Source of the DNA: an uncultured Planctomycetaceae bacterium
GTDB lineage: Bacteria; Planctomycetota; Planctomycetia; Pirellulales; Pirellulaceae
Assembly: GCA_963758085.1 (NCBI GenBank)
Contig: CAVWUB010000004.1
Coordinates: 334,259-398,258 of the forward strand
Direction: 5' to 3'
DNA: 64,000 nt
The position numbers and the translations under genes were made by a program. Of this stretch, positions 6,008 to 59,576 are shown in pieces; position 1 is the stretch's first letter, and the number at the start of each line of letters is the position of its first letter. The notes under the pieces are model-generated. The model made no database searches. It saw only the letters and a program-made list of their open reading frames with translations, and was not told the origin of the DNA.

Positions 6008-6047
6008 TTCCTACGGTTCGTCTTTCCTTACTGGAGTTCTTGCATCC

Positions 6048-7378
6048 GTGGCCAACCAAGTCGATACCCAGGTGGATCTGCGGGAGCTTGTGGTCGCTAA
6101 CCAATCGTTCGGCCCTGCCGAAGTGGCAGCGATCCGTCAAGCGATTGTGGATAATCATCTCCATTTCATCGAACTGCGCGATGCGGTCGGCGAATTGGAA
6201 GACGATCCGGGGTTGACGCCGGCAGCGAGAACCAAGCTGGGCGTTTGCCTGTACTTGCTCGGCCGGTACAAGGCGGCCAGCGAGACACTCGCGCATGCCG
6301 ATGGCGGCGCGATGGCCCTGTTTTATTCGGCCCGCTGCGCTTTGGAGATGGGCGACTATCAGGGCGCGATCGAGCGCTACGAGCAGGCGCGGAAATCAGG
6401 CTACGACGGCGATCACTGCTTGTTAGGAATTGCCGAAGCCCATCGCTACCAGGGCAACCTGCAGGAAGCGATGAACATTCTGGACAACATGTTCGGGCCG
6501 ATCGAGCAGACCGCCAACTATTTGACTCAGCGTGCCGCCACTGTCTCGGCGATTGGCGGAAACCTGTCGGAAGCGATCGCACTCTACGAGCGCGCGGTGC
6601 AAACCGACAAAAATCATTCTGGCGCGTTGTTTGGTCTGGCATCGAAAACGACCGTCAGGGCAACGACGAAGAGGCACTGGCTCTTTACGAGCGGGCAGCG
6701 AACACCTTCCCGACCGGACTCGGGGCACTGCTGAACCTCGGCGTGTTCTACGAAGACAACAACCAGTACGACAAAGCACAGGTTTGTTATCGGCGGATTC
6801 TCGATGCGTTCCCCGATCATAAACAGGCGCTGCTGTACATGAAGGACGCTTCGGCGTCCGGCAATATCCTCTACGACGAAGAAACGCAGCGTCGCAACGA
6901 CCGTTTGGCTCAGATTCTCAACCAACCGGTCAGCAACTTCGAGTTGTCGGTTCGCAGCCGCAATTGCCTGGCGAAGATGGGCATCGAGACGATCGGGGAC
7001 CTAACGCGAACCAGCGAAGCGGAACTGCTGAGCAGCAAGAACTTCGGCGAAACCAGCTTGTATGAGATTCGCGAGGTGCTCTCGAGCAAAGGATTGTCGC
7101 TTGGCCAGTTCGCCAACGAACGCAAATCGAGCGATCCGCCGATCGACACGTCCCACATGTCGCCGGACGAACAGGCACTGTTGGATCGTCCGATCGCTGA
7201 TTTGAATCTGTCGGTTCGGGCTCGCAAGTGCATGGTCCGCTTGGGCATCAATACGATTGGCGAATTGATCCGCAAGACTGGCGACGACATGCTGGAGTGC
7301 AAGAACTTCGGTGTGACGAGCTTGAACGAGGTGCGTGAGAAGCTTGCGGCTCTCGGATTGAAGATGCGGGGCGACTGA
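6048..7378 (+). CDS. TPR-repeat protein with two tandem RNA polymerase alpha C-terminal-domain (alpha-CTD)-like modules. There is an apparent +1/-1 frameshift near 6620-6660.
   Basis: TPR-like repeats (LGRYKAASE..., [20 protein letters not shown]) lie in frame 0 up to ~6640. TPR ([15 protein letters not shown]...[23 protein letters not shown]) continues in frame 2, so the two ORFs 6048-6734 and 6245-7378 most likely belong to one gene. The C-terminus has two copies of [20 protein letters not shown]...[22 protein letters not shown], closely resembling E. coli RpoA alpha-CTD ([20 protein letters not shown]...[22 protein letters not shown]). Confidence 0.6.
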
Positions 7379-23135: not shown

Positions 23136-24329
23136 TCAAACCTTTTCGGGGCTCAGCAGCTTTTGAATTTGCTCGCTGTCCATGTTTTCTTGCGTCGCCA
23201 CATGGACGCCGGTATCGACAAACGGCTCGACCGGTTCGCCGCGGATCGCTTTGACCATGGAGACGATCGCCAAATAACCCATCTGAACCGGGTCCTGCAG
23301 GATGATCGCCGAGAGTTTGCCATCCCGCAGCGCCTTAGCCATCGCGTCGCTGGAGTCGAAGCCGACGAACACAACTTTGCCGGCAAGTTTGCGATCCTCC
23401 AGCGCTCGCAGTACCCCTTCGGCGTTCGGTTCGCAGACGGCAAAGATCCCGTTGACTTGATCGGCGTAGCGATTGAGGACCTGCTGCGCCTTGTCCATCG
23501 CCGACTCGGTGGTCGTGCCGGCGTACTGGTCGCTGCTGATCACCTTGATGTCGGGGAATGCCTCGAGGCCTTTGAGAAAACCTTCTTCGCGTTGGTGCGT
23601 GCTTTCGCTCCCCTTGTTGTACCGCAGCAGGATGACGTTGCCCTTGCCACCGAGTTTCTCGGCCATCACTTCGGCCGCCAATTGGCCGCCGCGGTAATTG
23701 TCGGTGGAAACGTAGCTGGCAAACGCATCGGACGGGGCATTGAGTGCGCTGTCGAAGATCACCACCGGCACGCCGCCCCGGCGAGCTTCTTGAACGGGCC
23801 GGACCAGCGCATCGGCGTCGAGCGGCGCCAGACAGATGCCGTCGACCTGCTTGTTGACGAACCCCTGAACGACGTTGATCTGTTCGTCCCGGTCGCTTTC
23901 CTTTTGCGGTCCCCGCCACTGAATGTCGGCACCCAGTTCTTCGCCGGCCTTGAGCGCTCCGTAGTGGACCGACTTCCAAAAGATATGAGTTGTCCCCTTA
24001 GGGATCATCGCGATCTGCAGCCGCCGACCATCGCTGCCCGCAGCGGTCGATGCGGCTTGTTTGTCTGCGGAGGCCGGCGGTTGGCAGGCCACGGTGACGC
24101 CGAGCAGGAGCAACAGCAGGGGGGCAAGGTAACGCAAGGGAAAGTCGCCTCGTGAGGTGGGAAGATCGGGCAGCGATGTTGGGGACGCTGCCGCAGAGGT
24201 GAATAGTCCGGCCGAGCGAAGGTTGCCGTGATGGGTCGGGCTATTTGCCGTGCACCAGACGTTTAAACGCTTCGCTGAGCCGGAGCGTGATTTTACCCGG
24301 TTTGCCGTCGCCAATGGTGCGGTTATCAA
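23136..24329 (-). CDS. Periplasmic sugar-binding protein of an ABC transporter (RbsB/LacI-like PBP fold), probably a lipoprotein
   Basis: IAMIPKGTTHIFWKSVHYGALKAGEELG...VDGICLAPLDADALVRPVQEARRGGVPVVIFDS is typical of a PBP-I sugar-binding protein. A signal peptide with a lipobox (LGVTVAC) is present. The start codon is uncertain. Confidence 0.7.
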   Translation of the reverse strand: MITAPLATANRVKSRSGSAKRLNVWCTANSPTHHGNLRSAGLFTSAAASPTSLPDLPTSRGDFPLRYLAPLLLLLLGVTVACQPPASADKQAASTAAGSDGRRLQIAMIPKGTTHIFWKSVHYGALKAGEELGADIQWRGPQKESDRDEQINVVQGFVNKQVDGICLAPLDADALVRPVQEARRGGVPVVIFDSALNAPSDAFASYVSTDNYRGGQLAAEVMAEKLGGKGNVILLRYNKGSESTHQREEGFLKGLEAFPDIKVISSDQYAGTTTESAMDKAQQVLNRYADQVNGIFAVCEPNAEGVLRALEDRKLAGKVVFVGFDSSDAMAKALRDGKLSAIILQDPVQMGYLAIVSMVKAIRGEPVEPFVDTGVHVATQENMDSEQIQKLLSPEKV

Positions 24330-25105
24330 CCTTTGTCACTGAAATCACTTCGGCCGCACTACCGGTCAGGAAGCACTCGTCGGCGACGTAGATGTCATGA
24401 CGGACGAGCGTTTTTTCAGCCAGCGGAATGCCTTCGGCAGCGGCCAGCTCAATCACGGTGTTGCGGGTGATGCCTTCCAAGATGCCGGCATCGGTCGGTG
24501 GGGTGATCAGCATCCCGTGCTTAACGATGAAGATGTTGTCGCCGGTACACTCGGCCACTTCGCCCTTGTGGTTGAGCATCAGCGCTTCGTCGCAGCCGGC
24601 GCAGCCCTTCCATCTTCGCCAGAATGTTATTGAGATAGTTGAGCGATTTGATCCGCGGGCTCAGTGCCGCGGAGTGGTTGCGCATCGTCGACGCGGTGAC
24701 GATTTCCATCCCATCGCGGTAACGCTCCGGCGGATACAGCGCGATATGGTCGGTGATGATGATCACCTGCGGATTGGAGCAGCGATTGGGGTCCAGGCCC
24801 AGACTGCCGCTGCCGCGGGTGACGACCAGGCGGATGTACGCGTCGCTAAGCTGATTCACCTCCAACGTGCTGCGGACGCTATCGGCCATCGCCGCTTTGT
24901 CGATCGGGATGCTCAAGCCGATTGCCAGCGCCGATTCGTAGAGCCGATCGAGGTGTTCGGCGAGTTTGAACACTCGTCCGCTGTAGGCCCTCATCCCCTC
25001 GAAGACTCCATCGCCGTAGAGCAAGCCGTGGTCATAGACGCTGATTTTGGCGTCTTCTTTGTCGAACAATTGGCCGTTGATGGAAACCTTCAGGCTCATG
25101 ATCAA
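24241..25105 (-). CDS. ilvE: Branched-chain / class IV aminotransferase, interrupted by a single-nucleotide frameshift near 24595
   Basis: The N-terminal part (24521-25105) contains [22 protein letters not shown]...[14 protein letters not shown]. The C-terminal part (24241-24579, other frame) contains [28 protein letters not shown]...[11 protein letters not shown]. The junction ctgcgccggctgcgac reads LRAGCDEAL if one G is restored. Confidence 0.7.
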
Positions 25106-25514
25106 GTGTTTGCGGTGAGAGTGAACGTCGAGAAACGCGGCGATGGTTGTGGCAGTACGATGGTTGCGGCAGTATAAGAGGTCACCGGGGGTACCGCGAG
25201 TTCACTGGATTTCCACTCAGAGCGGTCCATTTCCCCCGCTGCCGGGCCGGCCGCAGAAGCAGCGACCGCGTTTAACGGAGCAGCCGAGGCTCAAGCCGGA
25301 CGGATGCTAGCGTTAAAATCGTGCCATGTCTTCTAGAAAGGGCTTCCGAGACGCCACCGCGAACGCTAAACTGCTCGACCGGCATCTTTCCTGCAGTGCC
25401 CACCGCGATCGGTCCGACTGGGACCCGTGCTGGGAAAAGTTAATGGGTGCCTCTAACCGAGCTGCGTCAGGCGGCTCCTAACCGAATCTTTAGCCAGTGA
25501 TCGAAGCAACCAGT

Positions 25515-25829
25515 ATGTACGCCATCATCGTCGACGGCGGTCGCCAGTACCGCGTGGAACCCGGCATGGAACTCGACTTGGATTTCCGGGAGGCCGCGGC
25601 CGGAGACAACATCACTTTGGGTAAAGTCCTCTGCATCGGCGGTGAGGATGGTCTCAAGCTCGGCTCGCCGACGCTTGCCAACACCGCGGTGATCGCTTCG
25701 GTCATCGGCGCACGTCAGGGTGAAAAGTTGTTCATCCAGAAATTTCGCCGCCGCAAACACTTCAAGAAGCGAACCGGCCACCGCCAGCTGTACACCCGCG
25801 TTCGCATCGAATCGATCGGCGCAGCCTAA
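25515..25829 (+). CDS. rplU: 50S ribosomal protein L21
   Basis: MYAIIVDGGRQYRVEPGMELDLD...KFRRRKHFKKRTGHRQLYTRVRIESI matches the L21 consensus. Confidence 0.85.
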   Translation: MYAIIVDGGRQYRVEPGMELDLDFREAAAGDNITLGKVLCIGGEDGLKLGSPTLANTAVIASVIGARQGEKLFIQKFRRRKHFKKRTGHRQLYTRVRIESIGAA

Positions 25830-25883
25830 TCCAGCCGCTGCTGACGGGAAGAGACGTTATTCCTCCGTTCCCCTGAGCCGACC

Positions 25884-26927
25884 ATGTCCAGGCTGAAGCT
25901 GGATGATTATCACGTCGGCTCGGTGCTCGGTGTCGGCACCGTGGGAACCATCTACGCGGCGACGGAGAAGGCGACCGGCAAACCGGTCGCGATCAAAAAG
26001 CTGCATCCTGCGGTCAGCCGTAATCCACTGATCGGAGCACGCTTCCGCCGCGAGATGATGATCCTCGAAAAGCTCCGCCACCCCAATGTGATTGGGTACT
26101 TCGGTGGCGGCGAGGACATCGACGGCAACCTGTTCTACATCATGGAACTGGTCGAGGGGGGATCGATCCGCGACCTGTTGGACAGTAGCGGTTTCCTCGC
26201 TTGGCAGCTGGTCGTCAGCGCAGCGGTTCAAATCTGTTCGGCCCTCCAGTGCGCCCACAACCACGGCATCATTCACCGTGACCTGAAGCCTGGCAATCTG
26301 TTCCTGACGCGCGACGGCATGATCAAGCTCGGCGACTTCGGAATCGCCCGCGATGTCAGCGCTTCGGACCTTACCGACCAGGGCCTGACCGTGGGAACGC
26401 ACGCCTACATGGCTCCGGAGCAAATCACCGGCGACGCGACGATCTCCGGCAAAGCCGACCTGTATGCCTTGGGATGCTGCCTGTATGAGATGCTCACCGG
26501 TCAAAAGCCGTACATCGCCGACAGCTTCCCGCAACTGTTCGAGCAACACCTGCGGGCGGATCCGCCCAAGCCGAGCCGGATCATCCAGTGCCCGCCGGAG
26601 GTCGATGAGATCGTCATCCATCTGCTTGCGAAGCGGCCCGAGGATCGTCCGTTCAATGCCCGCGAGGTGCAGGGCAAGATGCTGCGGATCATGGACAAAT
26701 ATGGCCTTCGTGACGAAGTGTCGCGGCCGCCGACTGCTGGCAATATGAAGGACATTTCAGCCGGCCAAGTGCAGGACATGGGACGGCAAATGCTGCAGCG
26801 TCAGATCCGGGCGAGGCTCGGCGGCGAGGCCCGCCGGGAGGTCTCCTGGAGTAAATTTGCGGCGATTCTGGCGATGATTATTATCCTGTGCGTTGCGTTG
26901 GTGGTCGCTCGCCGGTTTTCGGCATGA
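25884..26927 (+). CDS. Serine/threonine protein kinase with a C-terminal TM anchor
   Basis: Gly-loop LGVGTVGTIY, VAIK, HRDLKPGNLFL, DFGIAR and APE motifs, plus a hydrophobic C-terminal helix. Confidence 0.85.
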   Translation: MSRLKLDDYHVGSVLGVGTVGTIYAATEKATGKPVAIKKLHPAVSRNPLIGARFRREMMILEKLRHPNVIGYFGGGEDIDGNLFYIMELVEGGSIRDLLDSSGFLAWQLVVSAAVQICSALQCAHNHGIIHRDLKPGNLFLTRDGMIKLGDFGIARDVSASDLTDQGLTVGTHAYMAPEQITGDATISGKADLYALGCCLYEMLTGQKPYIADSFPQLFEQHLRADPPKPSRIIQCPPEVDEIVIHLLAKRPEDRPFNAREVQGKMLRIMDKYGLRDEVSRPPTAGNMKDISAGQVQDMGRQMLQRQIRARLGGEARREVSWSKFAAILAMIIILCVALVVARRFSA

Positions 26928-27098
26928 ACGACCGGCGCATGCTCGACCGGGCGACTCAGCGGTGGCGGGGCGTGATCAATTCCTGCCGCTCATTGTCAAA
27001 AAACGCTTAAGCGAGTAGCTTTTTGGCATAGCGGGCGACGTTGTTGCATCCCGCACCGGACATTCCGTTCCCGTTCATTTTGCGGATTTCTATTCCTC

Positions 27099-28365
27099 GT
27101 GATCGCCCCTTCTCGAGTCGATTCGCTTCCCGATTCTCAGCGGATTGTTATCACCGGCATCGGATTGACGTCTCCCAACGGCAACGATTGGCAATCCTTT
27201 CGCCAAGCGCTGTTAGAGAAACGCAGTGGCGTTAGGCCATACGAAATTCGCTACGTCGGCGAGACGCTGGCCGGCGTCTGCGATTTCGACGCGCTGCGAT
27301 ACCAGACGAAGAAAGACCTCCGCCGCGGCACCCGTGCCGGCAGCGTCGGCATCTACTGCAGCCAACGAGGCGGTCAAGCGACTGCGGGCTCGATTGGGCA
27401 AACATCGATCGTTCGCGCGTCGGCATCTACATCGGCGTGACCGAGCACGGCAACGTCGAGACCGAGAACGAGATCTACGAGATCAAGGGCTACGACTACG
27501 ACACCAAGGTCTGGTCGCACCACCACAATCCGCGCACGGTGGCCAACAACCCGGCCGGCGAAATCACGCTGAACATGGGCATCACCGGGCCCGCACTACA
27601 CGATCGGCGCCGCCTGTGCCGCCGGCAATGCCGGGCTGATCCAGGGCGCGCAGATGCTGCGGCTGGGCGAATGCGACGTGGCGCTGGCCGGCGGCGTCTC
27701 GCGAAAGCATTCACACGTTCGGCATCTTCGCCAGCTTCAAGAGCCAAGGCGCGCTGGCCACGCACGAGCGATCCGGCCCAAGCCGTCGCGCCGTTCGACC
27801 GCGATCGCAACGGCATCGTCGTGGCCGAAGGCGGCTGCGTCTACGTGCTGGAACGGCTCAGCGACGCGAAGAACCGCGGCGCGAAGATCTACGGCGAGCT
27901 GGCCGGCTACGCGATGAACACCGACGCCACCGACTTCGTGCTGCCCAATCCCGAGCGGCAGGCGCAGTGCATCGCAGCTGGCGCTGCAGCGCGCCGGGCT
28001 GGAGCCGGAGGAGATCGACATCGTCAGCACCCACGCCACGGGCACCAACAGCGGCGACGTCCAGGAGTGCGATGCGCTGCGCGGGTGTTCGGCGATTGCA
28101 AGACGGTGAAGTTCAACAACACCAAGAGCTTCATCGGCCACGCGATGGGCGCCGCCGGAGCGCTGGAATTGGCCGGCAACCTTGCCGGCCTTCGACGACG
28201 GCGTCGTGCCACGCCACGATCAACGTCGACGACCTCGATCCCGAGTGCGCTCTGCCGGGATTAGTGACCGGTGAGGCTCAGGAAGTCCGCGGCGTCGACT
28301 ACATTCTGAACAACTCGTTCGGCATGCTGGGCATCAACTCGGTCGTGATCATCCGGCGCGTGTAA
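27099..28365 (+). pseudogene. Beta-ketoacyl-ACP synthase (FabF/KAS-II-like), multiply frameshifted
   Basis: KAS segments were followed through all three frames: VITGIGLTSPNGNDWQSF (f0), AANEAVKRL (f1), IDRSRVGIYIGVTEHGN...ITGP (f2), HYTIGAACAAGNAGLIQGAQMLRLGECDVALAGGVS (f0), ESIHTFGIFASFKSQGALATHE (f1), FDRDRNGIVVAEGGCVYVLERLSDAKNRGAKIYGELAGY (f2), LALQRAGLEPEEIDIVSTHATGTNSGDVQECDALRG (f0), VFGDCKTVKFNNTKSFIGHAMGAAGALE (f2), TINVDDLDPECALPGL...NNSFGMLGINSVVIIRRV (f1). That gives about 8 frameshifts. Confidence 0.75.
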
Positions 28366-28441
28366 TTTCCAGTTATCAGGCAGCCCCACCAGCGGTACGG
28401 ACTGCATCTGCGATTGCCTTTATCCATTCACCACAGAGAAC

Positions 28442-28690
28442 CTACCGACCATGAGTCCCGCCGAAATCCGCGATGAGATCCTCGACATTCTTGGAGACAT
28501 CGCTCCGGACGAGGACCTCGACGAATGGTCGACGACAAGAACTTCCGCGAGCAGATGGAACTCGACAGCATGGACTTCCTCGACATCGTGATGGAACTCC
28601 GCAAGCGCCATCGCATGCAGATTCCGGAGGAGGATTACGGCCAATTGGCCAGCATGCAGACCACGGTGAGCTACCTCGAACCGAAAGATG
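28442..28690 (+). pseudogene. Acyl carrier protein, frameshifted once
   Basis: MSPAEIRDEILDILGDIAPDEDLDEW in one frame continues as LVDDKNFREQMELDSMDFLDIVMELRKRH in another. This is an ACP helix II region (DSM/DSL-like). Confidence 0.55.
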
Positions 28691-28722
28691 CGCAGACATC
28701 GTCAAGGCATAGCCTGCGCCAT

Positions 28723-30119
28723 GTACGACACGATCATCATCGGCGCCGGCATGTCCGGGTTGGCCGCGGGCATCCGCCTGGCATACTACGACCAGCGGGT
28801 CTGCATCCTCGAGCGGCACTACACGATCGGCGGGCTCAACTCGTTCTACCGCCTGCGCGGCCGCGATTACGACGTCGGCCTGCACGCGGTCACGAACTTC
28901 ACGCCCAAGGGGACCGCAGACGGGCCGCTGGCCCGGTTGCTGCGTCAGCTGCGTTTCAACTGGGAAGACTTCGCCCTGGCCGCAGATCGGCTCGTCGATT
29001 CGCTTTCCCGGCGTCAGTCTCGACTTCGGCAACGACATCGAACTGCTGCAAAGCGAGATCGCGCGCGAGTTTCCCGACTGGTCGAGGCAACTTGCGAAAC
29101 TGCTGCGATTCAGCTCGTCGACTACGACGATCTGGCGGGAGATGATCCGAACTTCAACCGCAGCGCCCGCACGGTGCTGGAGCAGTTGATCCCGATCCGC
29201 TGCTCGTCGAAATGCTGCTCTGCCCGCTGATGTGGTACGGCAATGCCCGCGAGGACGACATGGACTGCGGCCAGTTCTGCATCATGTTCCGCAGCATTTA
29301 TCTCGAAGGGTTCGGCCGTCCGTTCACCGGCGTGCGACTGATCCTCAAGACTCTGGTGCGCAAGTTCCGCGGCCTGGGCGGCGAACTGAAACTCCGCAGC
29401 GGTGTGTCGCGGATCCACGTCGAGGACGGCCGCGCCGTCGGCGTGGTGCTCGACGATGGGACGGAGCTCGCCGGCCGCCGCATCCTGTCCTCAGCCGGCA
29501 CGGTCGAAACGCTGCGGATGTGCGACGACATCACCGAAGTCGACGTGGCCAAAGCGGGCCAGCTGAGCTTTATCGAGTCGATCTCGATCCTCGATGTTCA
29601 ACCCAAGGACATCGGATACGACCGCACGATCGTGTTTTACAACGACAGCGAGACCTTCCATTGGCGGCGGCCCGAACAAGGACTGTGCGATATGCGCACC
29701 GGCGTCATCTGCTCGCCGAACAACTATCGTTATGATGCCGCCGACGGAATGCTGCCCGACGGTGTCATCCGGATCACCACGCTGGCCAACTACGACCGCT
29801 GGTGTGCGTTGCCCGAACCGATGTACCGGGCCGAGAAGGTCGCTCGGTACGACCGCGGTCGCACTCGGCGGTGCGGTTCATGCCCGACTTCCGCCGGCAC
29901 GTCATCGACACCGACATGTTCACGCCCACGACGATCCGCCGCTTCACCTGGCACGACAACGGCGCGGTGTACGGCGCGCCGGACAAACGGCTCGACGGCA
30001 CGACGCATCTGAAGAACCTGTTCCTCTGCGGCACCGACCAGGGCTTCGTCGGCATCATCGGCGCCATTATCAGCGGCATCAGCATGGCCAATCGCCACTG
30101 CCTCGTCTCAGCCGACTGA
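28723..30119 (+). pseudogene. FAD-dependent oxidoreductase (phytoene-desaturase/amine-oxidase-like), multiply frameshifted
   Basis: The N-terminus MYDTIIIGAGMSGLAAGIRLA (Rossmann GxGxxG) and C-terminus LFLCGTDQGFVGIIGAIISGISMA (FAD-binding) are in different frames. The body is split over at least 3 frames with at least 5 shifts (ORFs 28688-29230, 29212-30012, 29802-30119). Confidence 0.65.
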
Positions 30120-30261
30120 GCTGCTCGGTCAGATTGCGCGCCCTGAAGCGGATCAAAATCGGCCCGTGGTCATACCCGCATCGCGGGCGACGTCGGGTCC
30201 AGTTGTGGACTAGAATCTTTCGGGGGCCACGACCCTACCCGCTCGCTCGTCCACTCCTTCA

Positions 30262-30930
30262 GTGCAATCCGCAATCATGTGGCAGTCGCTACAACCGCTC
30301 ATCGAATCGTTGTTCGTCGGTCCGGTCTGGCCGGCTTCGGTGCTGTTGTTGTTGGTCTTGGGCTACCTGTTGTTGTCGCTGGGTACATCTTGGGATGTGG
30401 ACGGTCCGGACCTGGAGGTCGATGCCCACGTTTGGCAAAGCCTTGGAACTGCCACGCTGCGCTGGCTGCACTTGGATTCGGTTCCAGTGGTCATCTGGGG
30501 CGGTCTGTTTGCCTGCATCAACTGGTTGCTGGCCTACATCCTGTGGAATGCTTTTGATTCGGCGCGGCACGACCCGACGTGGCTTGTATCAGCGCTGCTG
30601 GCGACGCGCAACGCGGTGATCGCGGCGGTGATCACGAGGTTCGTCACCGCGCCGCTGGCGCCCTACCTGGGCGGCGGAGCGGCCTACGGTGTAGAGACGC
30701 TGATCGGCAGGTCGTGCGTCGTCTCCTCGGGTGAAGCGACGCCGACCTTTGGACAAGCGAAGTACGACACCGGCGGCGCTCCGCTGCTGCTCAACATCCG
30801 CACCGATGGACCTCATCTCGCCAAAGGCACACCGGTCCGCATCGTCTCCTTCGATCCCACCAAACGCATCTACTCTGTCACCCTCGATCTTGATACTGAT
30901 ATCAATACCTTTTCCGGGACCCAAACATGA
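30262..30930 (+). CDS. NfeD/YqiJ-like membrane protein (TM region plus a C-terminal soluble beta domain)
   Basis: Multiple TM helices are followed by a C-terminal ~70-aa soluble domain (GTPVRIVSFDPTKRIYSVTLDLD). It overlaps the flotillin start by 4 nt (ATGA), a pairing typical of nfeD-flotillin (yqiJ-yqiK, yuaF-floT) operons. Confidence 0.55.
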   Translation: MQSAIMWQSLQPLIESLFVGPVWPASVLLLLVLGYLLLSLGTSWDVDGPDLEVDAHVWQSLGTATLRWLHLDSVPVVIWGGLFACINWLLAYILWNAFDSARHDPTWLVSALLATRNAVIAAVITRFVTAPLAPYLGGGAAYGVETLIGRSCVVSSGEATPTFGQAKYDTGGAPLLLNIRTDGPHLAKGTPVRIVSFDPTKRIYSVTLDLDTDINTFSGTQT

Positions 30931-33074
30931 TCATCCATCCGCTGCTTGCTCTTTCTGATGCGGCGATGTACGGCCTGCTGACCGTCGGGCTGCTGGTGTT
31001 CTTCGCGATGTTGGCGGCGTTTTACGTCAGCATCTTTTTCGTCAAAGTTGGACCGGATGAGGCGATCGTCAAGTCGGGAGCGGGCGGGATCAAGGTCGTC
31101 ACCGATGGTGGTTTGCTGCGGATGCCGCTCGTCCAGCACATCGAGTACATGGACCTGACGCTCAAGAGCTTTGAGATCGCGCGTCAAGGCGCTGAAGGCT
31201 TGATCTGCAAGGACAATATTCGCGCCGATATTAAAGTCGCGTTCTTCATCCGTGTCGACAAAACGGCGGAAGAGATCAAGGAAGTCGCTCAGTCGATCGG
31301 CCCGAAGCGGTGCAGTGAGATCGAGACGCTCCGCGAACTGTTTGATGCCAAGTTCAGCGAAGCGCTCAAGACGGTCGGCAAACAGTTCGACTTCGTCGAC
31401 CTGTATGACAAACGCGATAAATTCAAGGACGAAATCCTCAAGGTCATCGGCACCGATCTCAATGGTTACCGACTCGACGATGCCGCGATCGACTACCTCG
31501 AGCAGACGCCGCTGTCGCTGCTCAACCCCAACAACATCCTCGACGCCGAAGGGATCAAAAAGATCACCGAGCTGACGTCGACCGAAAAGATCAAGGAAAA
31601 CCAGTTCACTCGTGACCGCGAAAAGACGCTTAAGAAACAAGACGTCGAAGCGGAAGAAACGATCCTCGAACTCGAGCGGCAACGCGTCCAGGCGGTCGAG
31701 AAGCAACAACGCGAAATCGCAGAACTCCGAGCTCGTGAAAAGGCATCAGCCGATAAGGTCCGCGAACAACAGCGACTAGAATCCGAACGTGTGCGGATTC
31801 AGACCGAGGAAGAAATCGGCATCGCCGAGGAAAACAAGTCCCGGCAAATCCTCGTCGCCCAGCGCAACAAGGAACGCACCGACGGGGTCGAACTGGAACG
31901 CGTCCAGCGTGATCGCGAACTGGAAGCGGTCGAACGCTTGCGGTTGGTCGGCGTCGCCGATGTCGAAAAGCAAAAGGCGATCGAAGTTGAAAACCGCAAC
32001 ATCCAAGAAGTGATTCGCGAGCGAGTGGCGGTCGAGCGGGCTGTGGTGGAAGAGAAAGAGCGAATCAAAGACACCGAAGAAAAGGCCGGGGCCGAACGAC
32101 TCAAGTCGGTCCAGATCACCGCCGCTCAAATGCGTGCCGAAGAAGATCTCATCCGCCAAACCAAAGCCGCTCAGGCCGAAAAAGAAGCTGCTCTAATGTT
32201 GGCCGATAAGATTCGCGTCGAGGCCGAGGCGATGAAGGACGCGGCCGAGCGCGAGACCGCTGCGACTAAGATGCTGGCCGAAGCCGAATCAGCCAAACAG
32301 GCAGCGGTCGGACTGGCCGAAGCGCGGGTTCAGGAAGCCAAAGCCGATTCGCTGCAGAAGGAAGGTATTGCTCAGGCCACCGTGCTGGAACGCAAAGCCG
32401 TTGCGGAAGCTAAGGGTATCGAAGCCAAGGCGGAGGCCCTTCAGAAGCAAGGCTTAGCTGAAGCGGCCGTGGCGCTGGAAAAGTACCACAGCGAAGCGAC
32501 CGGCATCACCGAAAAGGCCGAGGCGATGAAGCAACTCGACAGCGTCGGCAAGGAACACGAAGAGTTCAAGCTGCGACTGGAGAAAGAGCAGAACGTCGAG
32601 ATTGCGGCAATCAATGCCCAGAAGAATATCGCCGAAAGCCAAGCCGGCGTCGTCGGCGAAGCGCTGCGAGCGGCCCGAATCGACATCGTCGGCGGCGATG
32701 GCCAGTTCTTCGAGCAGATCACCTCAGCCGTCAAGGGCGGCAAGGCGATCGACCGCTTCGTCTACAACAGCCGCGTGGCAACTGACATTAAGGATACCTT
32801 CTTTGATGGCAACCCCGGCTACTTCCGCGACAAGCTGCTGACGCTAGTGGCGCAGTTCAACCTCAGCACCGACGATATCAAGGACCTGTCGATTGCGGCC
32901 CTAATCGCGCAGTTGATGGGCGCGGCTAAGAGTGAGGACCTTCGCTCGCAGCTGACCAGTCTGCTCGGCATGGCGGGCTCGGCTGGAATCGCTGACCAAC
33001 GGGTCTCCAAACTGGTGTTGGATGCCCCCAAAGTCACACAGGTAACCAGCGTCAACGGCAATAGCAAGAAATAA
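30927..33074 (+). CDS. Flotillin-family protein (SPFH/band-7 domain plus long Ala/Glu-rich coiled coil), 715 aa
   Basis: An N-terminal TM, then SPFH-like VKVGPDEAIVKSGAGGIKVV...LTLKSFEIARQGAEGLICKDNIRADIKVAFFIRV, then about 450 aa of EA-repeat coiled coil as in FloT/YqiK. Confidence 0.75.
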   Translation: MIIHPLLALSDAAMYGLLTVGLLVFFAMLAAFYVSIFFVKVGPDEAIVKSGAGGIKVVTDGGLLRMPLVQHIEYMDLTLKSFEIARQGAEGLICKDNIRADIKVAFFIRVDKTAEEIKEVAQSIGPKRCSEIETLRELFDAKFSEALKTVGKQFDFVDLYDKRDKFKDEILKVIGTDLNGYRLDDAAIDYLEQTPLSLLNPNNILDAEGIKKITELTSTEKIKENQFTRDREKTLKKQDVEAEETILELERQRVQAVEKQQREIAELRAREKASADKVREQQRLESERVRIQTEEEIGIAEENKSRQILVAQRNKERTDGVELERVQRDRELEAVERLRLVGVADVEKQKAIEVENRNIQEVIRERVAVERAVVEEKERIKDTEEKAGAERLKSVQITAAQMRAEEDLIRQTKAAQAEKEAALMLADKIRVEAEAMKDAAERETAATKMLAEAESAKQAAVGLAEARVQEAKADSLQKEGIAQATVLERKAVAEAKGIEAKAEALQKQGLAEAAVALEKYHSEATGITEKAEAMKQLDSVGKEHEEFKLRLEKEQNVEIAAINAQKNIAESQAGVVGEALRAARIDIVGGDGQFFEQITSAVKGGKAIDRFVYNSRVATDIKDTFFDGNPGYFRDKLLTLVAQFNLSTDDIKDLSIAALIAQLMGAAKSEDLRSQLTSLLGMAGSAGIADQRVSKLVLDAPKVTQVTSVNGNSKK

Positions 33075-33118
33075 ACTGTGATTCGGAATCTGCTCCACCG
33101 CCACTTAGACGTCCGCAC

Positions 33119-36100
33119 ATGACGACCAACGACGACCTCTCCGGCGGTACTTATGAGATCTTGCGCAACCGCCTTCGGGATGGAGCGACCGTGCTGCGCA
33201 ACCGCCTCGGCGGGCTTAACCAGGATCGTGCAGCGGTCTTCGGCAACATCCAAACCACACTGCTTGCCACCGAACGGGTGACGACGGAACACAATTGTGT
33301 ACCGCGAGATCTGGTGGCGGTCGGCGACCGCTTCTTGTTTGGATATAACGTCCAGTTCGGCCTAAAAACGGAGACGCATCTGCAGGACGTTTTCGCCTGC
33401 TATCGATTCGACGGTTTAGAGTTTCATCCTGAACCGCTTGAGAGTTTGCTGCGCGACGAGCGTTTCGCCACCGATTTTTCTGACCTCTACCGCTACTACA
33501 AACACACCGCGTTCACCCGTTTCTTTTCCAACGGTCCATTCGTCTACTTCGTGTTCCAGGTAGGACGCACTGCCGCGGATATCAAAGCGTTCAAGTGGCG
33601 GTCAGCCGGTGGCGAGTTTCAGTACGTCGATAACCGCAGCGAGCACGAGGTTGTCCACCCACCGCAACATGAGTTCGTGTGGAAACGCACCACGCGCGAC
33701 CAACATCACTACGGACGCCATCCGCACATCTCGATCGAAGACCGCATGTTTGTGGAAACCGTCGGCGGTGACTTGACTATCAAAGTTGAGAACAACACCG
33801 AATCCGGTGAAGGGATTTACAGCGAGCCGGTCGATCATGCCGACCAAACACTCGACGACGCCGAAATCTACTACGCATCGCTCGGCAACCTCGTACTGCT
33901 CAAGATCCGCCCGTATCAGGAGCAGCGGTTCCGTTTCCTCGTCTTCAATGCCAAGCTGAACACCGTGATCCGTATGGATGAGATCGAGCATGCATGCGTG
34001 ATGCTGCCCGACGATCAAGGGATCATCTTTCCCGGTGGATACTACTTACAGACGGGAGAGTATAAACGGTTCGATCACGGCCTCAATCAGATGCTCTATG
34101 AGCGAACACTGCCAGCATCCAATGGTGAGGATTTCCTGTATCTGTTCTATCAGCGCGACAGTGGAACTTACATCCAGCTGCGCTACAACCTGATCCGGCA
34201 GAGCGTCGACACGCCGATGATCACCAGCGGCCAGACGTTCTTTGGCGACGGCAAGATGGTCGCCTTCAAAGCGAATGAGCAGCCGCAGAAGCATCACGCC
34301 GTACAGATTTGGCAAACCCCGTTCACCGGTCCCGACTTTGTTCCCGACAGCAATTCCGATTCATTGTTATTCAAGATCGGCAATAAAGAACTCGTGCGCT
34401 GCATGGCTGAGTGCAGTGAGATCTTGCACCTGATCGACAAGGAAGACAACTACGAAGGTTTGTATGTCGATCTTGTCAAACGCAGCGGCGATGTGCTGGA
34501 TAGCTACTTCTGGATCGACAAGTCTGAGACACACAAACTCGATGAGCCGCTGCGCACGATCCGCGAGGCAGCTTCCGCCGCAGTCGAAGAGTATGAGAAG
34601 GTGGTTCGCTTGCGACGCGATACGAGCAGTCGCACCGAAACCGTCAAGCATTCCATCGAAGCGCTGATTAAGCAGCTCGACCTGGGCCGGTTTGAGGCCG
34701 TCGATGATTTTGTCAATGCACTGGCGAAACTGCGCGAGCAGCGCGGAGCTGCAATCGCCCTTCGCGAGCTGCGGTACGTCGATCTGCAAGTGGTCGAATC
34801 GCTCGAAAAGCTGACGGCCGAGCGTTCCGAACGGCTCAGTCGGCGGTGCGTCGATTTCCTTGCCACGCCGCATGCGCTCGATCCCTACCGTCAGCGTGTC
34901 GACAAGGCAGCGACCGCAGTTGCCGGGCTGGAGCGAGTGACGCAGGCGAAAGAGTTGCAAAAAACGATCGATGAAGCGGCAGGGCAACTGGAACTGCTGA
35001 CCGAGACGGTCAGCAACCTGCAGATCGAAGATACAACCAAGCGAACGGAGATCATCGACGGCATCAGCGAGGTTTTTGCCTCGCTCAATCGGGTTCGCAG
35101 CGCTCTGCGCTCGCGGCTATCGGAACTGATGGGCAGCGAGGGAAGAGCCGAGTTTGCATCGCAACTGAAGCTGCTGCAGCAGACCGTCAACGGCTACCTC
35201 GACGTCTGTGACGCGCCCGATAAATGCGACAGCTATCTGACCCGGCTGATGATCCAGTTGGAGGAACTCGAGGGCCGGTTCGCTGAGTACGACGAGTTTG
35301 TCAGCGAGCTGACTCAGCGCCGCGAGGACATCTACACCGCATTTGAGTCGCGCAAGGTTCAGCTCGTCGAGGCGCGCAATCGCCGCGCTGAGACACTCGC
35401 GTCATCGGCCAATCGGATCTTGCAGGGAATCCAGACCAAAGCCTCGTCGTTGAAGGGCGTCGACGAAATCCTCGCCTATTTCGCTTCCGATCTGATGGTC
35501 GACAAGGCGCGAGGCATCATTGAACAACTGCGCAAGCTCGACGATACGGTCCGCGCGGAAGAGATCGAAAGCCGGCTCAAAACGGTTCGCGAAGACACTG
35601 TCCGGCAGCTCAAGGATCGCCAGGAGCTGTTCGAGGACGGCGGCGACACAATCCGTCTGGGACGTCACCGGTTTGGGGTCAACACGCAGCCGATCGATCT
35701 GACGAGTGTTGTCCGGGATGGCGTGTTGAGTCTGCACGTGACGGGCACGCAGTTCTTTGAGCCGCTGGACGATCCCGACCTGCTCGCCGCTCAAGATTTA
35801 TGGAATCAGGAGCTGATCAGCGAGAATGCAGAGGTTTATCGCGGCGAGTTCCTGGCGACCGATCTGTTTGAAACCTGGAAACGGTCCGCCGATCATCCCG
35901 GCGCGGCCATCCCCACGCTCGCTTGGGTCCAGCAACAGATCGCGGGTCGATTTTCTGAGGGCTTTGCCAAGGGCGTGCATGACCACGACGCGGCGCTGAT
36001 CCTCGAAGCGCTGGTGCGTCTGGATCAGCAAATCGGCTTGCTCCGGCACCGCCCCAGCGCCCGTGCTGCGGCGACGCTCTGGTGGCAGCGTTTGATCTCG

Positions 36101-38377
36101 AAGGCGAATCGCAATGCTCTGACCAGCTGGATCGGCGGCTTCGCGCATCTGGCCAGAGCCTTCCCCGGCGCCCGCCCGGCCGCTGAGTTTCGCCAGCGGA
36201 TCGTCGACTTGGTAGGTGACCCTCAGCAGGATCATGGCAGCTCGCTGGCCGAGATTTTTCCGGACGTCACGGCAACCATGGTCGCCGATTATTTATTTGA
36301 TGTGCTGACCGCGGCGGCGGCGACGCCTGTCTTTAGCTCCACCGCGGCGCGGTGGTATGAGTCATTTTGCGAGTCGATGCCACAGGAGGACCGCAAGGCG
36401 TGGGTCACGGACGTGCTCGGCGCCAACAACGCTCGCCCGCTGGAGTCGTTCGTGCTGGCCCGCAACTGGGCCGATGCATTCTTGACCAGCCAGGCGCCTG
36501 CCGCCGACGTCATCGACCCGCCGTTGGATTATCGCGACGAATTGGCGCTGTTGATTCAGCAGGATGGGGTGGGCAATTCGCAAATAGTGACCGCACACGT
36601 TGCCCAGCAGGTCGAGGGACTGGTAGGCGATCATCGCCGCATTGCCGGCGGTAAGCTGGTGGTCCATTATCACGAGCTGCTGGAGCGATTGCGCCGGTAT
36701 CACGCTCGGGTCGTGCCGCGGTTCAAACGCTTGGGCACCGCGAAGCATCAGGTATTAGAACGCTCACGTGCGGAACTGCGATTGGATGAGTTCCGCCCCA
36801 AGGTGCTGACCAGCTTTGTCCGCAACCGGCTGATCGACGAGGTTTACTTGCCGATGATCGGCGACAACCTCGCCAAGCAACTCGGAGCGGCCGGTGAAAA
36901 CAAACGCACCGATCGCTCGGGCATGTTGCTGTTGATCAGCCCGCCGGGCTATGGCAAAACGACGCTGATGGAATACGTTGCCAATCGGCTGGGCGTCGTA
37001 TTCATGAAAATCAACGGCCCGACCATCGGCCATGGAGTCACGTCGCTCGATCCCGATGAAGCGCCCAACGCGGCGGCGCGGGAAGAGGTGGCGCGAATCA
37101 ACTTAGCCCTGGAAATGGGCGACAATGTGATGCTGTACCTCGACGACATCCAGCACACACACCCGGAGTTGCTGCAAAAGTTCATTTCGCTCTGCGACAG
37201 CACCCGCCGGATCGAAGGTGTGCGAAACGGACGCACCAAAACTTATGATCTGCGAGGCCGTCGGTTTGCCGTCGTCATGGCTGGAAATCCTTATACCGAA
37301 AGCGGCGAGCGATTTCAGATCCCCGACATGCTTGCCAACCGTGCCGACGTTTATAACCTCGGCGAAATCATCGGCGATGCCTCCGACGCATTCGAGATGA
37401 GCTACTTGGAAAATTGTTTGACCAGCAATGAGCATTTGGCGCCACTGGCGGCCGGCAATCCCGAAGACGCACGGCAACTGATCCGCGCCGCTGGGCGTGA
37501 CTCGATTGAGGGTGCCGAGCTGAAGGGGAATTACTCGGCGGACCAAGTGCGGTCGATGTTCGAGGTGCTGCGAAAACTTATCCGCGTGCGCGATGTCGTG
37601 CTCAAGGTCAACCGCGCCTATATCCGGTCCGCTGCGCAGGCGGATGCGTATCGCACCGAGCCGCCGTTCAAGCTGCAGGGCAGCTACCGCAACATGAACC
37701 GGATGGCGCAGAAGGTCGCACCGGTCATGAATGATGCGGAATTAGCAACACTCATCTATGCGAGCTACGAGCAGGATGCACAGACACTCACCACGGACAA
37801 CGAAGCCAATCTACTGAAGCTCAAAGAACTGCTCGGGACGCTCACGGTTCAGGAGCAGGAACGCTGGGATGCGATCAAGTACGCGTTTGTTGAAAACGTG
37901 CGAATGTCGGGAATCAGCACGGAAGACCAAGCCGGCCAAGTGCTGCGTCAACTCGCGTCGATGCGCGATGGGCTGGAGTCGATCCGTCAGGTGATTGCGC
38001 GAGCGGTTACCATTCACGGCGAAGGCGCCGAGCAGCGGATGGACGAGCGGTTCGATGCGCTGCGCAGCGGACTGGTCACCGCCACCGATCAGCTCGCCGT
38101 CGTGCTGCAGTCGACCGCCGGGCAGTTGCAGAAGATCAGCGAGTTCCAAGCCGCGAACCCACCGGAGCAGAATGTCACGGTCCAGCACAAGGTCCCACGG
38201 GTGATGCTCGATTTGATCCGTGGCCAGTTCCATCTGATGCAAGAATGGCTGCGCCCGATCCTCGAAGGCTCGACGGTGCAGGGGCGTGAACTGGAAAGCC
38301 TGCGCGTCCGCATCGACAGCATGCTCGATACCTACGTGCGGCTGCAATCAGAACTCGAATCGGCCGTCGACAAATAG
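33119..38377 (+). CDS. Giant (1752 aa) uncharacterised protein with a C-proximal AAA+ ATPase module
   Basis: A single uninterrupted ORF. Walker A LLISPPGYGKTTLMEY (about aa 1275), Walker B VMLYLDDIQH (about aa 1340) and a sensor/arginine region VVMAGNPYTESGERFQIPDMLANRADVY (about aa 1390). The N-terminal ~1200 aa have no motif I recognise, and the central region is coiled-coil-like. It is spaced 45 nt from flotillin on the same strand. Confidence 0.6.
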   Translation: MTTNDDLSGGTYEILRNRLRDGATVLRNRLGGLNQDRAAVFGNIQTTLLATERVTTEHNCVPRDLVAVGDRFLFGYNVQFGLKTETHLQDVFACYRFDGLEFHPEPLESLLRDERFATDFSDLYRYYKHTAFTRFFSNGPFVYFVFQVGRTAADIKAFKWRSAGGEFQYVDNRSEHEVVHPPQHEFVWKRTTRDQHHYGRHPHISIEDRMFVETVGGDLTIKVENNTESGEGIYSEPVDHADQTLDDAEIYYASLGNLVLLKIRPYQEQRFRFLVFNAKLNTVIRMDEIEHACVMLPDDQGIIFPGGYYLQTGEYKRFDHGLNQMLYERTLPASNGEDFLYLFYQRDSGTYIQLRYNLIRQSVDTPMITSGQTFFGDGKMVAFKANEQPQKHHAVQIWQTPFTGPDFVPDSNSDSLLFKIGNKELVRCMAECSEILHLIDKEDNYEGLYVDLVKRSGDVLDSYFWIDKSETHKLDEPLRTIREAASAAVEEYEKVVRLRRDTSSRTETVKHSIEALIKQLDLGRFEAVDDFVNALAKLREQRGAAIALRELRYVDLQVVESLEKLTAERSERLSRRCVDFLATPHALDPYRQRVDKAATAVAGLERVTQAKELQKTIDEAAGQLELLTETVSNLQIEDTTKRTEIIDGISEVFASLNRVRSALRSRLSELMGSEGRAEFASQLKLLQQTVNGYLDVCDAPDKCDSYLTRLMIQLEELEGRFAEYDEFVSELTQRREDIYTAFESRKVQLVEARNRRAETLASSANRILQGIQTKASSLKGVDEILAYFASDLMVDKARGIIEQLRKLDDTVRAEEIESRLKTVREDTVRQLKDRQELFEDGGDTIRLGRHRFGVNTQPIDLTSVVRDGVLSLHVTGTQFFEPLDDPDLLAAQDLWNQELISENAEVYRGEFLATDLFETWKRSADHPGAAIPTLAWVQQQIAGRFSEGFAKGVHDHDAALILEALVRLDQQIGLLRHRPSARAAATLWWQRLISKANRNALTSWIGGFAHLARAFPGARPAAEFRQRIVDLVGDPQQDHGSSLAEIFPDVTATMVADYLFDVLTAAAATPVFSSTAARWYESFCESMPQEDRKAWVTDVLGANNARPLESFVLARNWADAFLTSQAPAADVIDPPLDYRDELALLIQQDGVGNSQIVTAHVAQQVEGLVGDHRRIAGGKLVVHYHELLERLRRYHARVVPRFKRLGTAKHQVLERSRAELRLDEFRPKVLTSFVRNRLIDEVYLPMIGDNLAKQLGAAGENKRTDRSGMLLLISPPGYGKTTLMEYVANRLGVVFMKINGPTIGHGVTSLDPDEAPNAAAREEVARINLALEMGDNVMLYLDDIQHTHPELLQKFISLCDSTRRIEGVRNGRTKTYDLRGRRFAVVMAGNPYTESGERFQIPDMLANRADVYNLGEIIGDASDAFEMSYLENCLTSNEHLAPLAAGNPEDARQLIRAAGRDSIEGAELKGNYSADQVRSMFEVLRKLIRVRDVVLKVNRAYIRSAAQADAYRTEPPFKLQGSYRNMNRMAQKVAPVMNDAELATLIYASYEQDAQTLTTDNEANLLKLKELLGTLTVQEQERWDAIKYAFVENVRMSGISTEDQAGQVLRQLASMRDGLESIRQVIARAVTIHGEGAEQRMDERFDALRSGLVTATDQLAVVLQSTAGQLQKISEFQAANPPEQNVTVQHKVPRVMLDLIRGQFHLMQEWLRPILEGSTVQGRELESLRVRIDSMLDTYVRLQSELESAVDK

Positions 38378-46206: not shown

Positions 46207-47306
46207 TTAGAACTCGCCGACAATCAATCCATCATTGATGGAGTAGAGTCGCTGATAAATGCCATAACCCTCGCCACGATTTGGACGCTCGAAGGCGCTG
46301 GCCGCGTTGACCCATGCAGTCGCCGTGTGCTGGACGAACTCCGAGACGAACCGGACCGATCCGTCGGCAAACCCAAACGTCGCACCTCCGGGGTGCTGGC
46401 TGCTGGCGGTGCGGTGCGGCTGCGGGTTTCCTTGGTCCTGGGTCCAGTTAATCGCCCACTGGCCATTGACCATCAGCGCATTGGTCGCACCGGACGCGTA
46501 CTCCGCAATATCCTTGCCTGCATAGATCCGGGACCGGTTGCGACCATTGGCATCCATCTCCCATTTGGTTTCAGCAACCATGATGGTATTGGTCGAGCCA
46601 TCGAGGATGTCACGTAGACCGACGGCCGGCCCGCGGTTGTTGCGGCAGAATACACCGTTGAACCGGCCGGCGGCCGGTTCGCGCCGACCGCAGCTCCTGC
46701 CCAGCCGTCGTAGGCACTGCCGGCACCTTGATAACTGCTTGTCGCCGAATTCGGTATGGCGCCGTCGTTCCACTGCGGCGGCTTGGTATCAGAGGGGCAG
46801 CTGAACAATGCCAGGGGTGTCTGGCACACCTCACGGTTTCGTGTGATCGTATTCTCGCCCGCGGGGTACCTGGGATCAAAGCGATCGAACTGATTGCCTT
46901 GTTCAATGAAGTGCAGCAAGCCGGTGGCCCAACCAAAACCTGATCCGCCTTCGGCATTGAGCCGATTGCCGTCAAAATCTCCACGGTAATCGTGACCGAT
47001 CGGAAACTTATTATGAGTATCGTGGTAGTTGTGCAGTGCCAGCCCGATGTTCTTAAGGTTGTTACTGCACGACATCCGCCGCGCCGCCTCACGAGCCGAT
47101 TGCACAGCCGGCAACAGCAGTCCGACCATCACGCCAATGATGGCGATCACGACCAGGAGTTCGACGAGCGTGAAACCGCTAGAGCAATGGCTGGCTGAGT
47201 GCCGTGGTGGCTGTGACGATGGGATCGGCCTCGGCTTGCGCGTCGTCGAAGGTTTGACCGGGGCAGTATCGAGATAGTACCGCCGTTGAGTTGCATTCCA
47301 TTTCAT
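46207..47306 (-). CDS. DUF1559 / prepilin-type N-terminal cleavage-methylation domain protein, with a frameshift near 46680-46770
   Basis: [53 protein letters not shown] is in ORF 46473-47306. The typical C-terminus NTIMVAETK...[16 protein letters not shown] is in the overlapping ORF 46207-46773 in another frame. Confidence 0.7.
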
Positions 47307-47653
47307 TTTGTGGTGCTCGGTGCAGGTGAGTGGAGTATGTGGCTAAAACCGCACGCTGGGTGCTGTATGAGGGCTTGAGGAGATCGGGATTCAGTCCGTC
47401 AGAAACCTTCTGAGTCGGCGTCTACGCGAGACCTGTGCCAAATGATGAGTAGCTCCCGAAAAAGAGCCTCTTGGGGCGTCATGAAGGGCGCATTGACGCC
47501 GTTTTTTGTTGCTTCCTTGCCATTGGCGACGAAATTGCAAACAGTGCAGCAGAGGCATTGTGGCCGTGCGCCGCCGTGAGATATTATGGCTCCCCCGACG
47601 GCTTCCCGTGATATGTGACGGCAAGCCAGTAAATCAGATAACACGAGATCGAC

Positions 47654-59542: not shown

Positions 59543-59576
59543 CGGGTGAAGGCGATCTTACCAGATTGGCGCTCCC

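Follow-up and report, generated by a model that had tools for sequence, protein, structure and literature searches.

In anammox planctomycetes, the gene clusters kuste3603-3608 combine a non-canonical FabF, a dedicated acyl carrier protein (ACP) and a CrtI-like 'phytoene desaturase', and it has been hypothesised that this flavoprotein desaturates acyl-ACPs, the anammox homologues being without phytoene desaturase activity in vivo (PMC2649909, PMC4790861). Long-read assemblies are known to produce false pseudogenes through indel errors, for example those that Kastor targets (PMC12007338). For genuine pseudogenes, a curated set of 151 bacterial examples contains 396 deletions versus 300 insertions, with 131 of the 396 deletions being 1 nt long and a mean deletion of about 19 nt (PMC6054270).

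We analysed a 64,000-nucleotide stretch of DNA (the window) from a member of the Pirellulaceae, in which positions 27099-30119 of the + strand hold three adjacent lipid-synthesis genes, each legible solely by changing reading frame. The first (27099-28365, +; start GTG at 27099, stop at 28363-28365) encodes a FabF-like beta-ketoacyl-ACP synthase of 419 codons when corrected, and 378 of the 419 residues are identical to those of its orthologue in a close relative, L008. Both Pfam domains of this ketosynthase score above the gathering score (PF00109, 128.7 bits; PF02801, 102.1 bits). However, the score of 314.7 bits against the NCBIfam fabF model falls below the equivalog cut-off of 493.75, so we regard the protein as a FabF-like ketosynthase and not as the housekeeping FabF. 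Its corrected translation shows the motifs GAACAAG (the context of the active-site Cys), STHATGT and GHAMGAAG, which we take to be the Cys-His-His catalytic triad of a ketosynthase. The second gene (28451-28712, +) encodes a dedicated ACP (Pfam PF00550) of 86 corrected codons with the phosphopantetheine-site motif LDSMDF, and shares 78 of 86 residues with L008. The third (28721-30119, +; Pfam PF01593 and PF13450) encodes an FAD-dependent oxidoreductase of the amine-oxidase/CrtI-like superfamily, with 466 corrected codons, a GAGMSGLAAG dinucleotide-binding motif and 417 of 466 residues identical to L008. This flavoprotein misses the thresholds of both the phytoene desaturase family (CrtI, TIGR02734; 45.6 bits, cut-off 238.1) and the NCBIfam carotenoid isomerase (82.8 bits, cut-off 586.9), and its membership is thus confined to the broad PF01593/PF13450 superfamily.

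The trio is probably a small module resembling a type-II fatty acid synthase, in which the non-housekeeping ketosynthase would extend an acyl chain carried by its dedicated ACP, and the CrtI-like flavoenzyme would probably desaturate or isomerise the ACP-held chain. All three genes are intact in every syntenic relative that we fetched (L001, L005, L008-L011 and L015). The ketosynthase, whose amino-acid identity across Pirellulales is 75-92%, is full-length and in a single frame in 80 of 80 retained species loci (from at least 570 relatives confirmed among the matches listed), and the gene order of the block is kept in at least 37 of these 80 loci. Split copies of the ketosynthase also occur in other long-contig metagenome-assembled genomes (MAGs), beside further split genes.

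We placed the net frameshifts by frameshift-aware alignment to the intact L008 orthologues, and found short compensating pairs from nucleotide alignments to four independent relatives. The initial annotation, made from the sequence of the window, had described a cluster with more than ten shifts, and the alignments bear this out, with 17 net frameshifts across the three genes. Frame-hopping in the ketosynthase was rightly recognised, although its count of about 8 switches becomes 9 net shifts relative to L008: eight of +1 (27357, 27382, 27587-92, 27702, 27766, 27974, 28181 and 28209) and one of -1 (28081), along with one compensating micro-shift pair (27785/27796). For the ACP, where a single shift had been reported, we find three: -1 at 28524-28527, +1 at 28684-28686 and a second +1 at 28694. 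The two +1 shifts garble the last 8 residues and mask the true stop codon, TAG at 28710-28712. The claim of at least five shifts in the flavoprotein agrees with our five net shifts (-2 at 28982, +1 at 29103 and 29113, and -1 at 29196 and 29861), to which compensating micro-shifts are added at 28915/28920, 29081-29091, 29293/29299 and 29853/29860. An ab initio GC3 frame plot for siting the frameshifts was too noisy and was discarded.

With compensating pairs included, the total comes to 22-30 indels (about 25), a range that depends on the reference and on how three or four short-spacer indels are counted. Every one is 1-2 nt long, and all lie in a patch at 27357-29862 (about 1 per 100 nt), leaving 258 nt at the start of the ketosynthase gene and 257 nt at the end of the flavoprotein gene free of indels. 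The same sites recur against L001, L005, L008, L011 and L015. Insertions (16-19) outnumber deletions (9-11), and 12 of 17 insertions are non-templated, i.e. unlike both adjacent bases. Only 2 of the 17 fall in runs of 3, and the whole region has 4 runs of at least 4; the homopolymer errors that had been suggested as an example of assembly artefact therefore describe few of these sites. Five plus/minus pairs, at most 11 nt apart, garble otherwise invariant residues (SR to VA, DG to RQ, AC to SI), and such pairs look like the misplacement of bases in a noisy consensus sequence. Once 1-2 nt are taken out at each site, all three proteins are full-length and share about 90% of their residues with the orthologues, with proper starts, stops and catalytic motifs and without larger deletions. 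As had been noted from the sequence, in-frame stops derived from substitutions are absent (0 in 971 corrected codons). Overall, the error density of the patch amounts to about 1% indels, to which the flavoprotein adds some twelve odd substitutions. The insertions all appeared to fall at codon boundaries, an observation that we did not use because the model behind the alignment partly creates it and G/C-rich codon junctions would lead one to expect it.

The strong localisation of the damage, also part of the initial description, is confirmed by its distribution: 17 of 21 frameshifts lie within 4.7% of the window (binomial P ~1e-19). The remaining four, in the other 61 kb, are indeed isolated, each splitting its gene between two frames, and affect ilvE, glgC, a DUF1559 protein and a TPR/RpoA-CTD protein. 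Both neighbours of the trio are intact. Upstream, a Ser/Thr protein kinase of 347 aa (25884-26927, +) has zero indels relative to L001 and L008, and an identical kinase protein is encoded on a 2314-bp Logan contig from run ERR11593883, which is colinear with window positions 24630-26943 by gene coordinates and ends 16 nt past the kinase. Downstream, a YqiJ-like membrane protein of 217 aa (30277-30930, +) differs from L008 by in-frame indels only (6 and 12 nt), and is called with an identical protein sequence on the deposited 2,888,995-bp contig. Compared with L008, some 17 kb of coding sequence on the flanks shows only in-frame indels plus a single 2-nt deletion, in ilvE. In nucleotide terms, the flanking genes match the nearest relatives about as closely as the trio does, yet they are clean.

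Judged against its homologues, the frame-corrected ketosynthase is an ordinary family member without sign of relaxed selection. Four of its residues are unseen among 120 homologues (control mean 1.45, maximum 15), and 3 of 244 near-invariant columns are changed, two of them inside a micro-shift. Even 25 neutral substitutions should have produced about 11 changes at such columns (P(<=3) = 0.005). The flavoprotein is less clear. It has 22 residues unseen in 120 homologues, 10 of them in micro-shifted segments and about 12 isolated (control mean 2.45, maximum 10), and 10 of its 259 near-invariant columns are changed, about half in micro-shifts. These odd residues could reflect either substitution error or real relaxation. 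Their transition/transversion ratio of 3:8 is not clearly unlike that of ordinary non-synonymous changes, and we made no use of it. Among the changes private to the window, synonymous third-position transitions form the most numerous class and the replacements are mostly conservative, a pattern that bears the mark of selection.

We consider it very likely that the frameshifts are consensus errors within one patch of a putative long-read or hybrid assembly, and that the organism itself almost certainly has all three genes intact. The indels are very short and largely non-templated, in sequence under clear purifying selection, as befits an error patch; so does the co-occurrence of other broken genes, conserved or housekeeping, with a contiguity typical of long reads (2,888,995 bp). 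The patch would then be about 2.5 kb of consensus of roughly single-read or few-read quality, perhaps because usable coverage was lost locally, because polishing failed or because reads from other Pirellulaceae were recruited to the block in polishing. The damage nevertheless falls on a single co-oriented, co-functional unit of three genes and spares both neighbours, exactly as loss of a pathway predicts; a randomly placed bad patch needs moderate luck to do the same. The isolated odd residues and altered near-invariant columns of the flavoprotein likewise sit less comfortably with artefact. The assembly problem raised in the initial annotation fits the data except in two details: the errors are mostly outside homopolymers, and a paralogous copy was not seen, the window having no second copy and none of the 80 retained loci, among the matches listed, coming from a contig as long as that of the source.

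As a special case of artefact, the patch could be a consensus of a mixed population, blending reads of related Pirellulaceae or a collapsed paralogue into a sequence that matches no real molecule. We regard this as possible but doubtful. The conserved gene order of the block means that foreign reads could be recruited to it, and the compensating micro-shifts and garbled invariant residues are of a kind that such blending could leave. In addition, the patch includes several 150-nt windows whose best reference belongs to a more distant lineage, although this switching is confounded because the ketosynthase is represented by far more reference loci than the flanks are. The same sliding best-match scan, over about 90 reference loci, contains no window of at least 95% identity, so a donor lineage is not identified, and the flanks, similarly conserved, are clean. 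Against artefact in general stands that the collections searched yielded no intact version of the locus from this species: full-length searches with the ketosynthase and flavoprotein gave no match above 89% identity, a 101-aa ketosynthase fragment gave none above 84%, an exact 50-mer of the broken ketosynthase had no match in the genome contigs searched, and five best-guess corrected ACP sequences were absent from the protein collection searched.

Recent, real pseudogenisation would instead mean that the lipid module is no longer needed and that all three genes are eroding by small indels, in line with one of the two initial proposals, that a dispensable module is being eroded. Frames are certainly disrupted relative to intact orthologues (17 net frameshifts versus L008), the indels are present in the deposited record, the damage is restricted to one functional unit between clean flanks, and the flavoprotein has an excess of window-private changes at conserved sites. 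First and second codon positions also account for a larger share of window-private changes in the patch than in its neighbours, which hinted at real decay; we dropped this line of argument as the ketosynthase replacements fall at variable columns and introduce residues known from homologues. However, the substitutions at constrained sites and the nonsense substitutions that mark relaxed selection are not seen, only the flavoprotein being ambiguous in this regard, and the invariant residues of the ketosynthase are essentially unhit despite 9-11 indels in its gene. Starts and stops are kept, and larger deletions do not occur. Nor is the indel spectrum a natural one, in which deletions would be at least as frequent as insertions and many of them would be of 3 nt or more; indels of 1-2 nt that are insertion-biased and mostly non-templated are the opposite of what has been measured in bacterial pseudogenes. 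Under the published frequencies (PMC6054270), nine deletions all of at most 2 nt have P = 6e-4, and at least 16 insertions among 25 indels have P = 0.03. Finally, ilvE and glgC are broken in the same assembly, and a module whose ketosynthase is full-length in every retained locus is not obviously dispensable. Genuine erosion is thus poorly supported, and we judge it improbable.

If the indels were nevertheless real, a free-living member of the Pirellulaceae would have inactivated the module very recently, through small and mostly non-templated insertions that arose in one local burst with hardly any substitutions, a scenario that we find very improbable. It would imply an unusual, locus-specific mutational process that is confined to indels, and would show the module to be dispensable; the locus would then be a rare case of localised indel-only mutagenesis, to which the evidence is strongly contrary. 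The idea that programmed ribosomal frameshifting or transcriptional slippage lets the broken genes be expressed draws its sole support from every segment still being readable and is effectively refuted by the site contexts (the scarcity of runs of identical bases given above), besides calling for at least 17 events of both signs where the orthologues have uninterrupted frames and none needs recoding.

Under the preferred reading, that of errors in the consensus, the locus is mainly a caution and of low biological interest as a pseudogene. The deposited annotation makes the genome seem to lack a lipid module that is intact in every Pirellulales relative examined, and spurious short proteins enter the databases in this way: the deposited NCBI/ENA contig (2.89 Mb) already bears broken fragments of 113 aa and 275 aa as gene calls. 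The genes are best treated as intact, so that loss of the pathway is not wrongly inferred. Error-induced and genuine pseudogenes appear separable from sequence alone by the size and sign of indels, their templating and changes at invariant residues. Independently of the frameshifts, the strikingly conserved trio may merit functional study.

Compared with the described systems, the trio resembles kuste3603-3608, by literature description only, in that both are planctomycete systems in which a non-housekeeping ketosynthase is joined by a dedicated ACP and a flavoprotein of the CrtI family, and differs from it in having no radical-SAM, FabZ or methyltransferase partners. To our knowledge, ladderane production is not known in Pirellulaceae. 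The locus shares with genuine bacterial pseudogenes the presence of several frameshifts in functionally linked genes with unaffected neighbours. Unlike these, in which deletions exceed insertions, many deletions are of 3 nt or more and constrained sites carry substitutions (PMC6054270), the patch is dominated by insertions, its indels are of 1-2 nt, and the ketosynthase is almost unchanged at invariant positions. In contrast to the false pseudogenes of long-read and hybrid assemblies (PMC12007338), its errors are not scattered but about 86-fold concentrated in one 2.5-kb stretch, and are mostly outside homopolymers, with insertions dominant. It nevertheless shares their main features: indels of 1-2 nt split genes whose conservation is otherwise perfect, the source contig is very long, other genes including housekeeping ones are broken, and the orthologues in short-read assemblies are intact.

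The damaged genes at 27099-30119 (+) encode a FabF-like ketosynthase (Pfam PF00109 and PF02801), a small acyl carrier protein (ACP; PF00550) and a flavoprotein of the amine-oxidase/CrtI-like superfamily (PF01593, PF13450). By ORF list and three-frame translation, none of these three co-oriented genes is an open frame; all segments are present and scattered across all frames. We mapped net frameshifts, which alter the frame onward, by frameshift-aware alignment of the window DNA with the proteins of the close relative L008. There are 17: nine in the ketosynthase (eight +1, one -1), close to the eight or so frame switches in the initial annotation, five in the flavoprotein (-2, +1, +1, -1, -1), where at least five had been seen, and three in the ACP (one -1, two +1 towards the 3′ end), where only one had been counted. 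These sites recur in nucleotide alignments with four references, which also contain compensating plus/minus pairs, or micro-shifts, at 27785/27796, 28915/28920, 29081-29091, 29293/29299 and 29853/29860. In total, 22-30 indels (16-19 insertions, 9-11 deletions), all of 1 or 2 nt, fall in a patch spanning 27357-29862. When ~17 kb of coding sequence on the flanks is set against L008, every indel is a multiple of three, except for a 2-nt deletion in ilvE. The 17 net shifts and their ~86-fold concentration in the trio (binomial P ~1e-19) therefore confirm that the damage is strongly localised, as first observed.

The ketosynthase and flavoprotein are very strongly conserved in Pirellulaceae (76-89% identity, 120 clusters each, in protein searches). 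Our comparison loci were metagenomic and genomic contigs with the window's gene order: ilvE(-), L21, Ser/Thr kinase, ketosynthase, ACP, flavoprotein, a YqiJ-like protein, a 715-aa coiled-coil protein and a ~1750-aa DUF3686/AAA protein. The order from the kinase to the last of these is kept among close relatives (window 25884-38377, L001, L008, L011). Nucleotide identity to the window is ~85.5% for L008-L011, 83% for L015, 81% for L001 and 78% for L005. The initial annotation had proposed looking for intact orthologues, and in all these fetched relatives the trio is intact (419, 86 and 465-466 codons). Scanning one genome for each species confirmed at least 570 ketosynthase relatives. Of the best 80 loci, all 80 carry a single-frame, full-length ketosynthase, 76 have the ACP after it, and at least 37 have the whole trio contiguous. 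The ketosynthase-ACP pair is conserved across Pirellulales, with 75-92% amino-acid identity in the ketosynthase. Exact DNA matching, protein and fragment searches, and look-ups with the corrected ACP found no intact same-species copy.

The trio's frameshifts are very probably an ordinary technical artefact, a patch of consensus or assembly error, including its mixed-read variant. Other causes take a small share of the probability. Genuine recent pseudogenisation of the trio is improbable, although the patch lies inside one functional unit with both neighbours clean, as pathway loss predicts, and a random bad patch would need moderate luck to coincide with one unit. With the frame restored at each indel, the trio has correct start codons, stop codons and motifs, is ~90% identical to L008 (ketosynthase 378/419, ACP 78/86, flavoprotein 417/466) and, in alignment to L008, contains no substitution-derived stop, in agreement with the initial annotation. 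Had the indels (9-11 in the ketosynthase) been gained neutrally, substitutions should have come with them; base substitutions exceed indels several-fold in mutation-accumulation studies. With even 25 neutral substitutions, ~11 near-invariant ketosynthase columns would be expected to change, but only 3/244 did (P(<=3) = 0.005; 120 homologues), two of them (SR to VA) inside a micro-shift. Four ketosynthase residues are unseen in 120 homologues (control mean 1.45, maximum 15). Among window-private substitutions, the biggest class is that of synonymous third-position transitions, and replacements are mainly conservative. The flavoprotein speaks to some extent for real decay: 22 of its residues are unseen in 120 homologues, 10 accounted for by micro-shifts and ~12 isolated (including H22Y, F183C, K203T, F300Y and K404T); controls average 2.45 and reach at most 10. 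These isolated residues could reflect partial relaxation, and could also be substitution errors in a stretch with ~1% error.

The indels are likewise unlike those of real pseudogenes. In 151 curated bacterial pseudogenes, deletions outnumber insertions (396 vs 300) and are often long (mean ~19 nt; only 131/396 are of 1 nt) (PMC6054270), whereas in the trio insertions outnumber deletions and none exceeds 2 nt. Under those frequencies, nine trio deletions all of <=2 nt have P = 6e-4, and the insertion excess has P = 0.03. Inserted bases differ from both neighbours in 12/17 cases and lie within runs of three in only 2/17; the indels look unlike replication slippage and appear to resemble single-molecule-read noise. 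The five plus/minus pairs, each within 11 nt, scramble residues invariant in 118-120/120 homologues, which would arise if a noisy consensus had a base out of place and would not be expected from neutral decay.

The assembly also breaks four other genes, as the initial annotation had noticed, each being one Pfam family running on across two frames. These are a TPR-repeat protein (+, ~6638-6656; ORFs 5973-6731 and 6155-7375), an ilvE-like branched-chain aminotransferase (-, 24241-25099; PF01063 positions 1-129 and 125-223), a DUF1559 (SBP_bac_10) protein with an N-terminal prepilin-type methylation motif (-, ~46660-46680; ORFs 46210-46788 and 46476-47342; profile positions 1-128 and 146-266) and a glgC-like glucose-1-phosphate adenylyltransferase (-, ~59278-59286; ORFs 58195-59301 and 59249-59557; NTP_transferase positions 2-61 and 59-243). 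Compared with L001 and L008, one GC unit is missing from a GCGCGC run at the ilvE lesion (24601-24603). The TPR-repeat protein carries two C-terminal RNA-polymerase-alpha-CTD-like domains, an unusual combination. Outside the trio this amounts to one broken gene per 15 kb, housekeeping genes included, a rate typical of assemblies with indel noise (PMC12007338). Two broken fragments, of 113 aa and 275 aa, appear as gene calls on a 2,888,995-bp contig (NCBI, ENA), whose contiguity suggests long reads. The orthologous ketosynthase is also fragmented in two long-contig MAGs, L013 (GCA_036704275.1, 1.8-Mb contig) and L014 (ERZ25039549 contig_25476), where other genes are split as well, among them a chorismate-binding enzyme broken into three, an illustration of the indel noise general to such assemblies. 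The sole independent record of this exact organism, a 2314-bp contig of Logan run ERR11593883, corresponds to window 24630-26943 with an identical kinase; it starts 27 nt away from the lesion in ilvE and runs to 16 nt past the stop codon of the kinase, shortly upstream of the trio.

As for why an error patch would coincide with an operon, one may speculate that, at the polishing step, the conserved block draws in reads of other Pirellulaceae; no donor lineage emerged from a sliding-window test. Recoding, i.e. expression despite the shifts, is excluded by their number and context.

The ketosynthase scores 314.7 bits against NCBIfam fabF (equivalog cut-off 493.75), which rules out a housekeeping FabF, and the flavoprotein scores far under the CrtI and carotenoid-isomerase cut-offs, which rules out a carotenoid enzyme. 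Given these scores, the trio is predicted to be a specialised lipid-type module, distinct from housekeeping FabF/AcpP. Judged from domains alone, the ketosynthase would extend an acyl chain carried by the dedicated ACP, and the CrtI-like flavoenzyme would then desaturate or isomerise it. By domains and literature only, this functional reading may echo the role, proposed but unproven, of CrtI-like proteins in anammox fatty-acid clusters (PMC4790861; PMC2649909).
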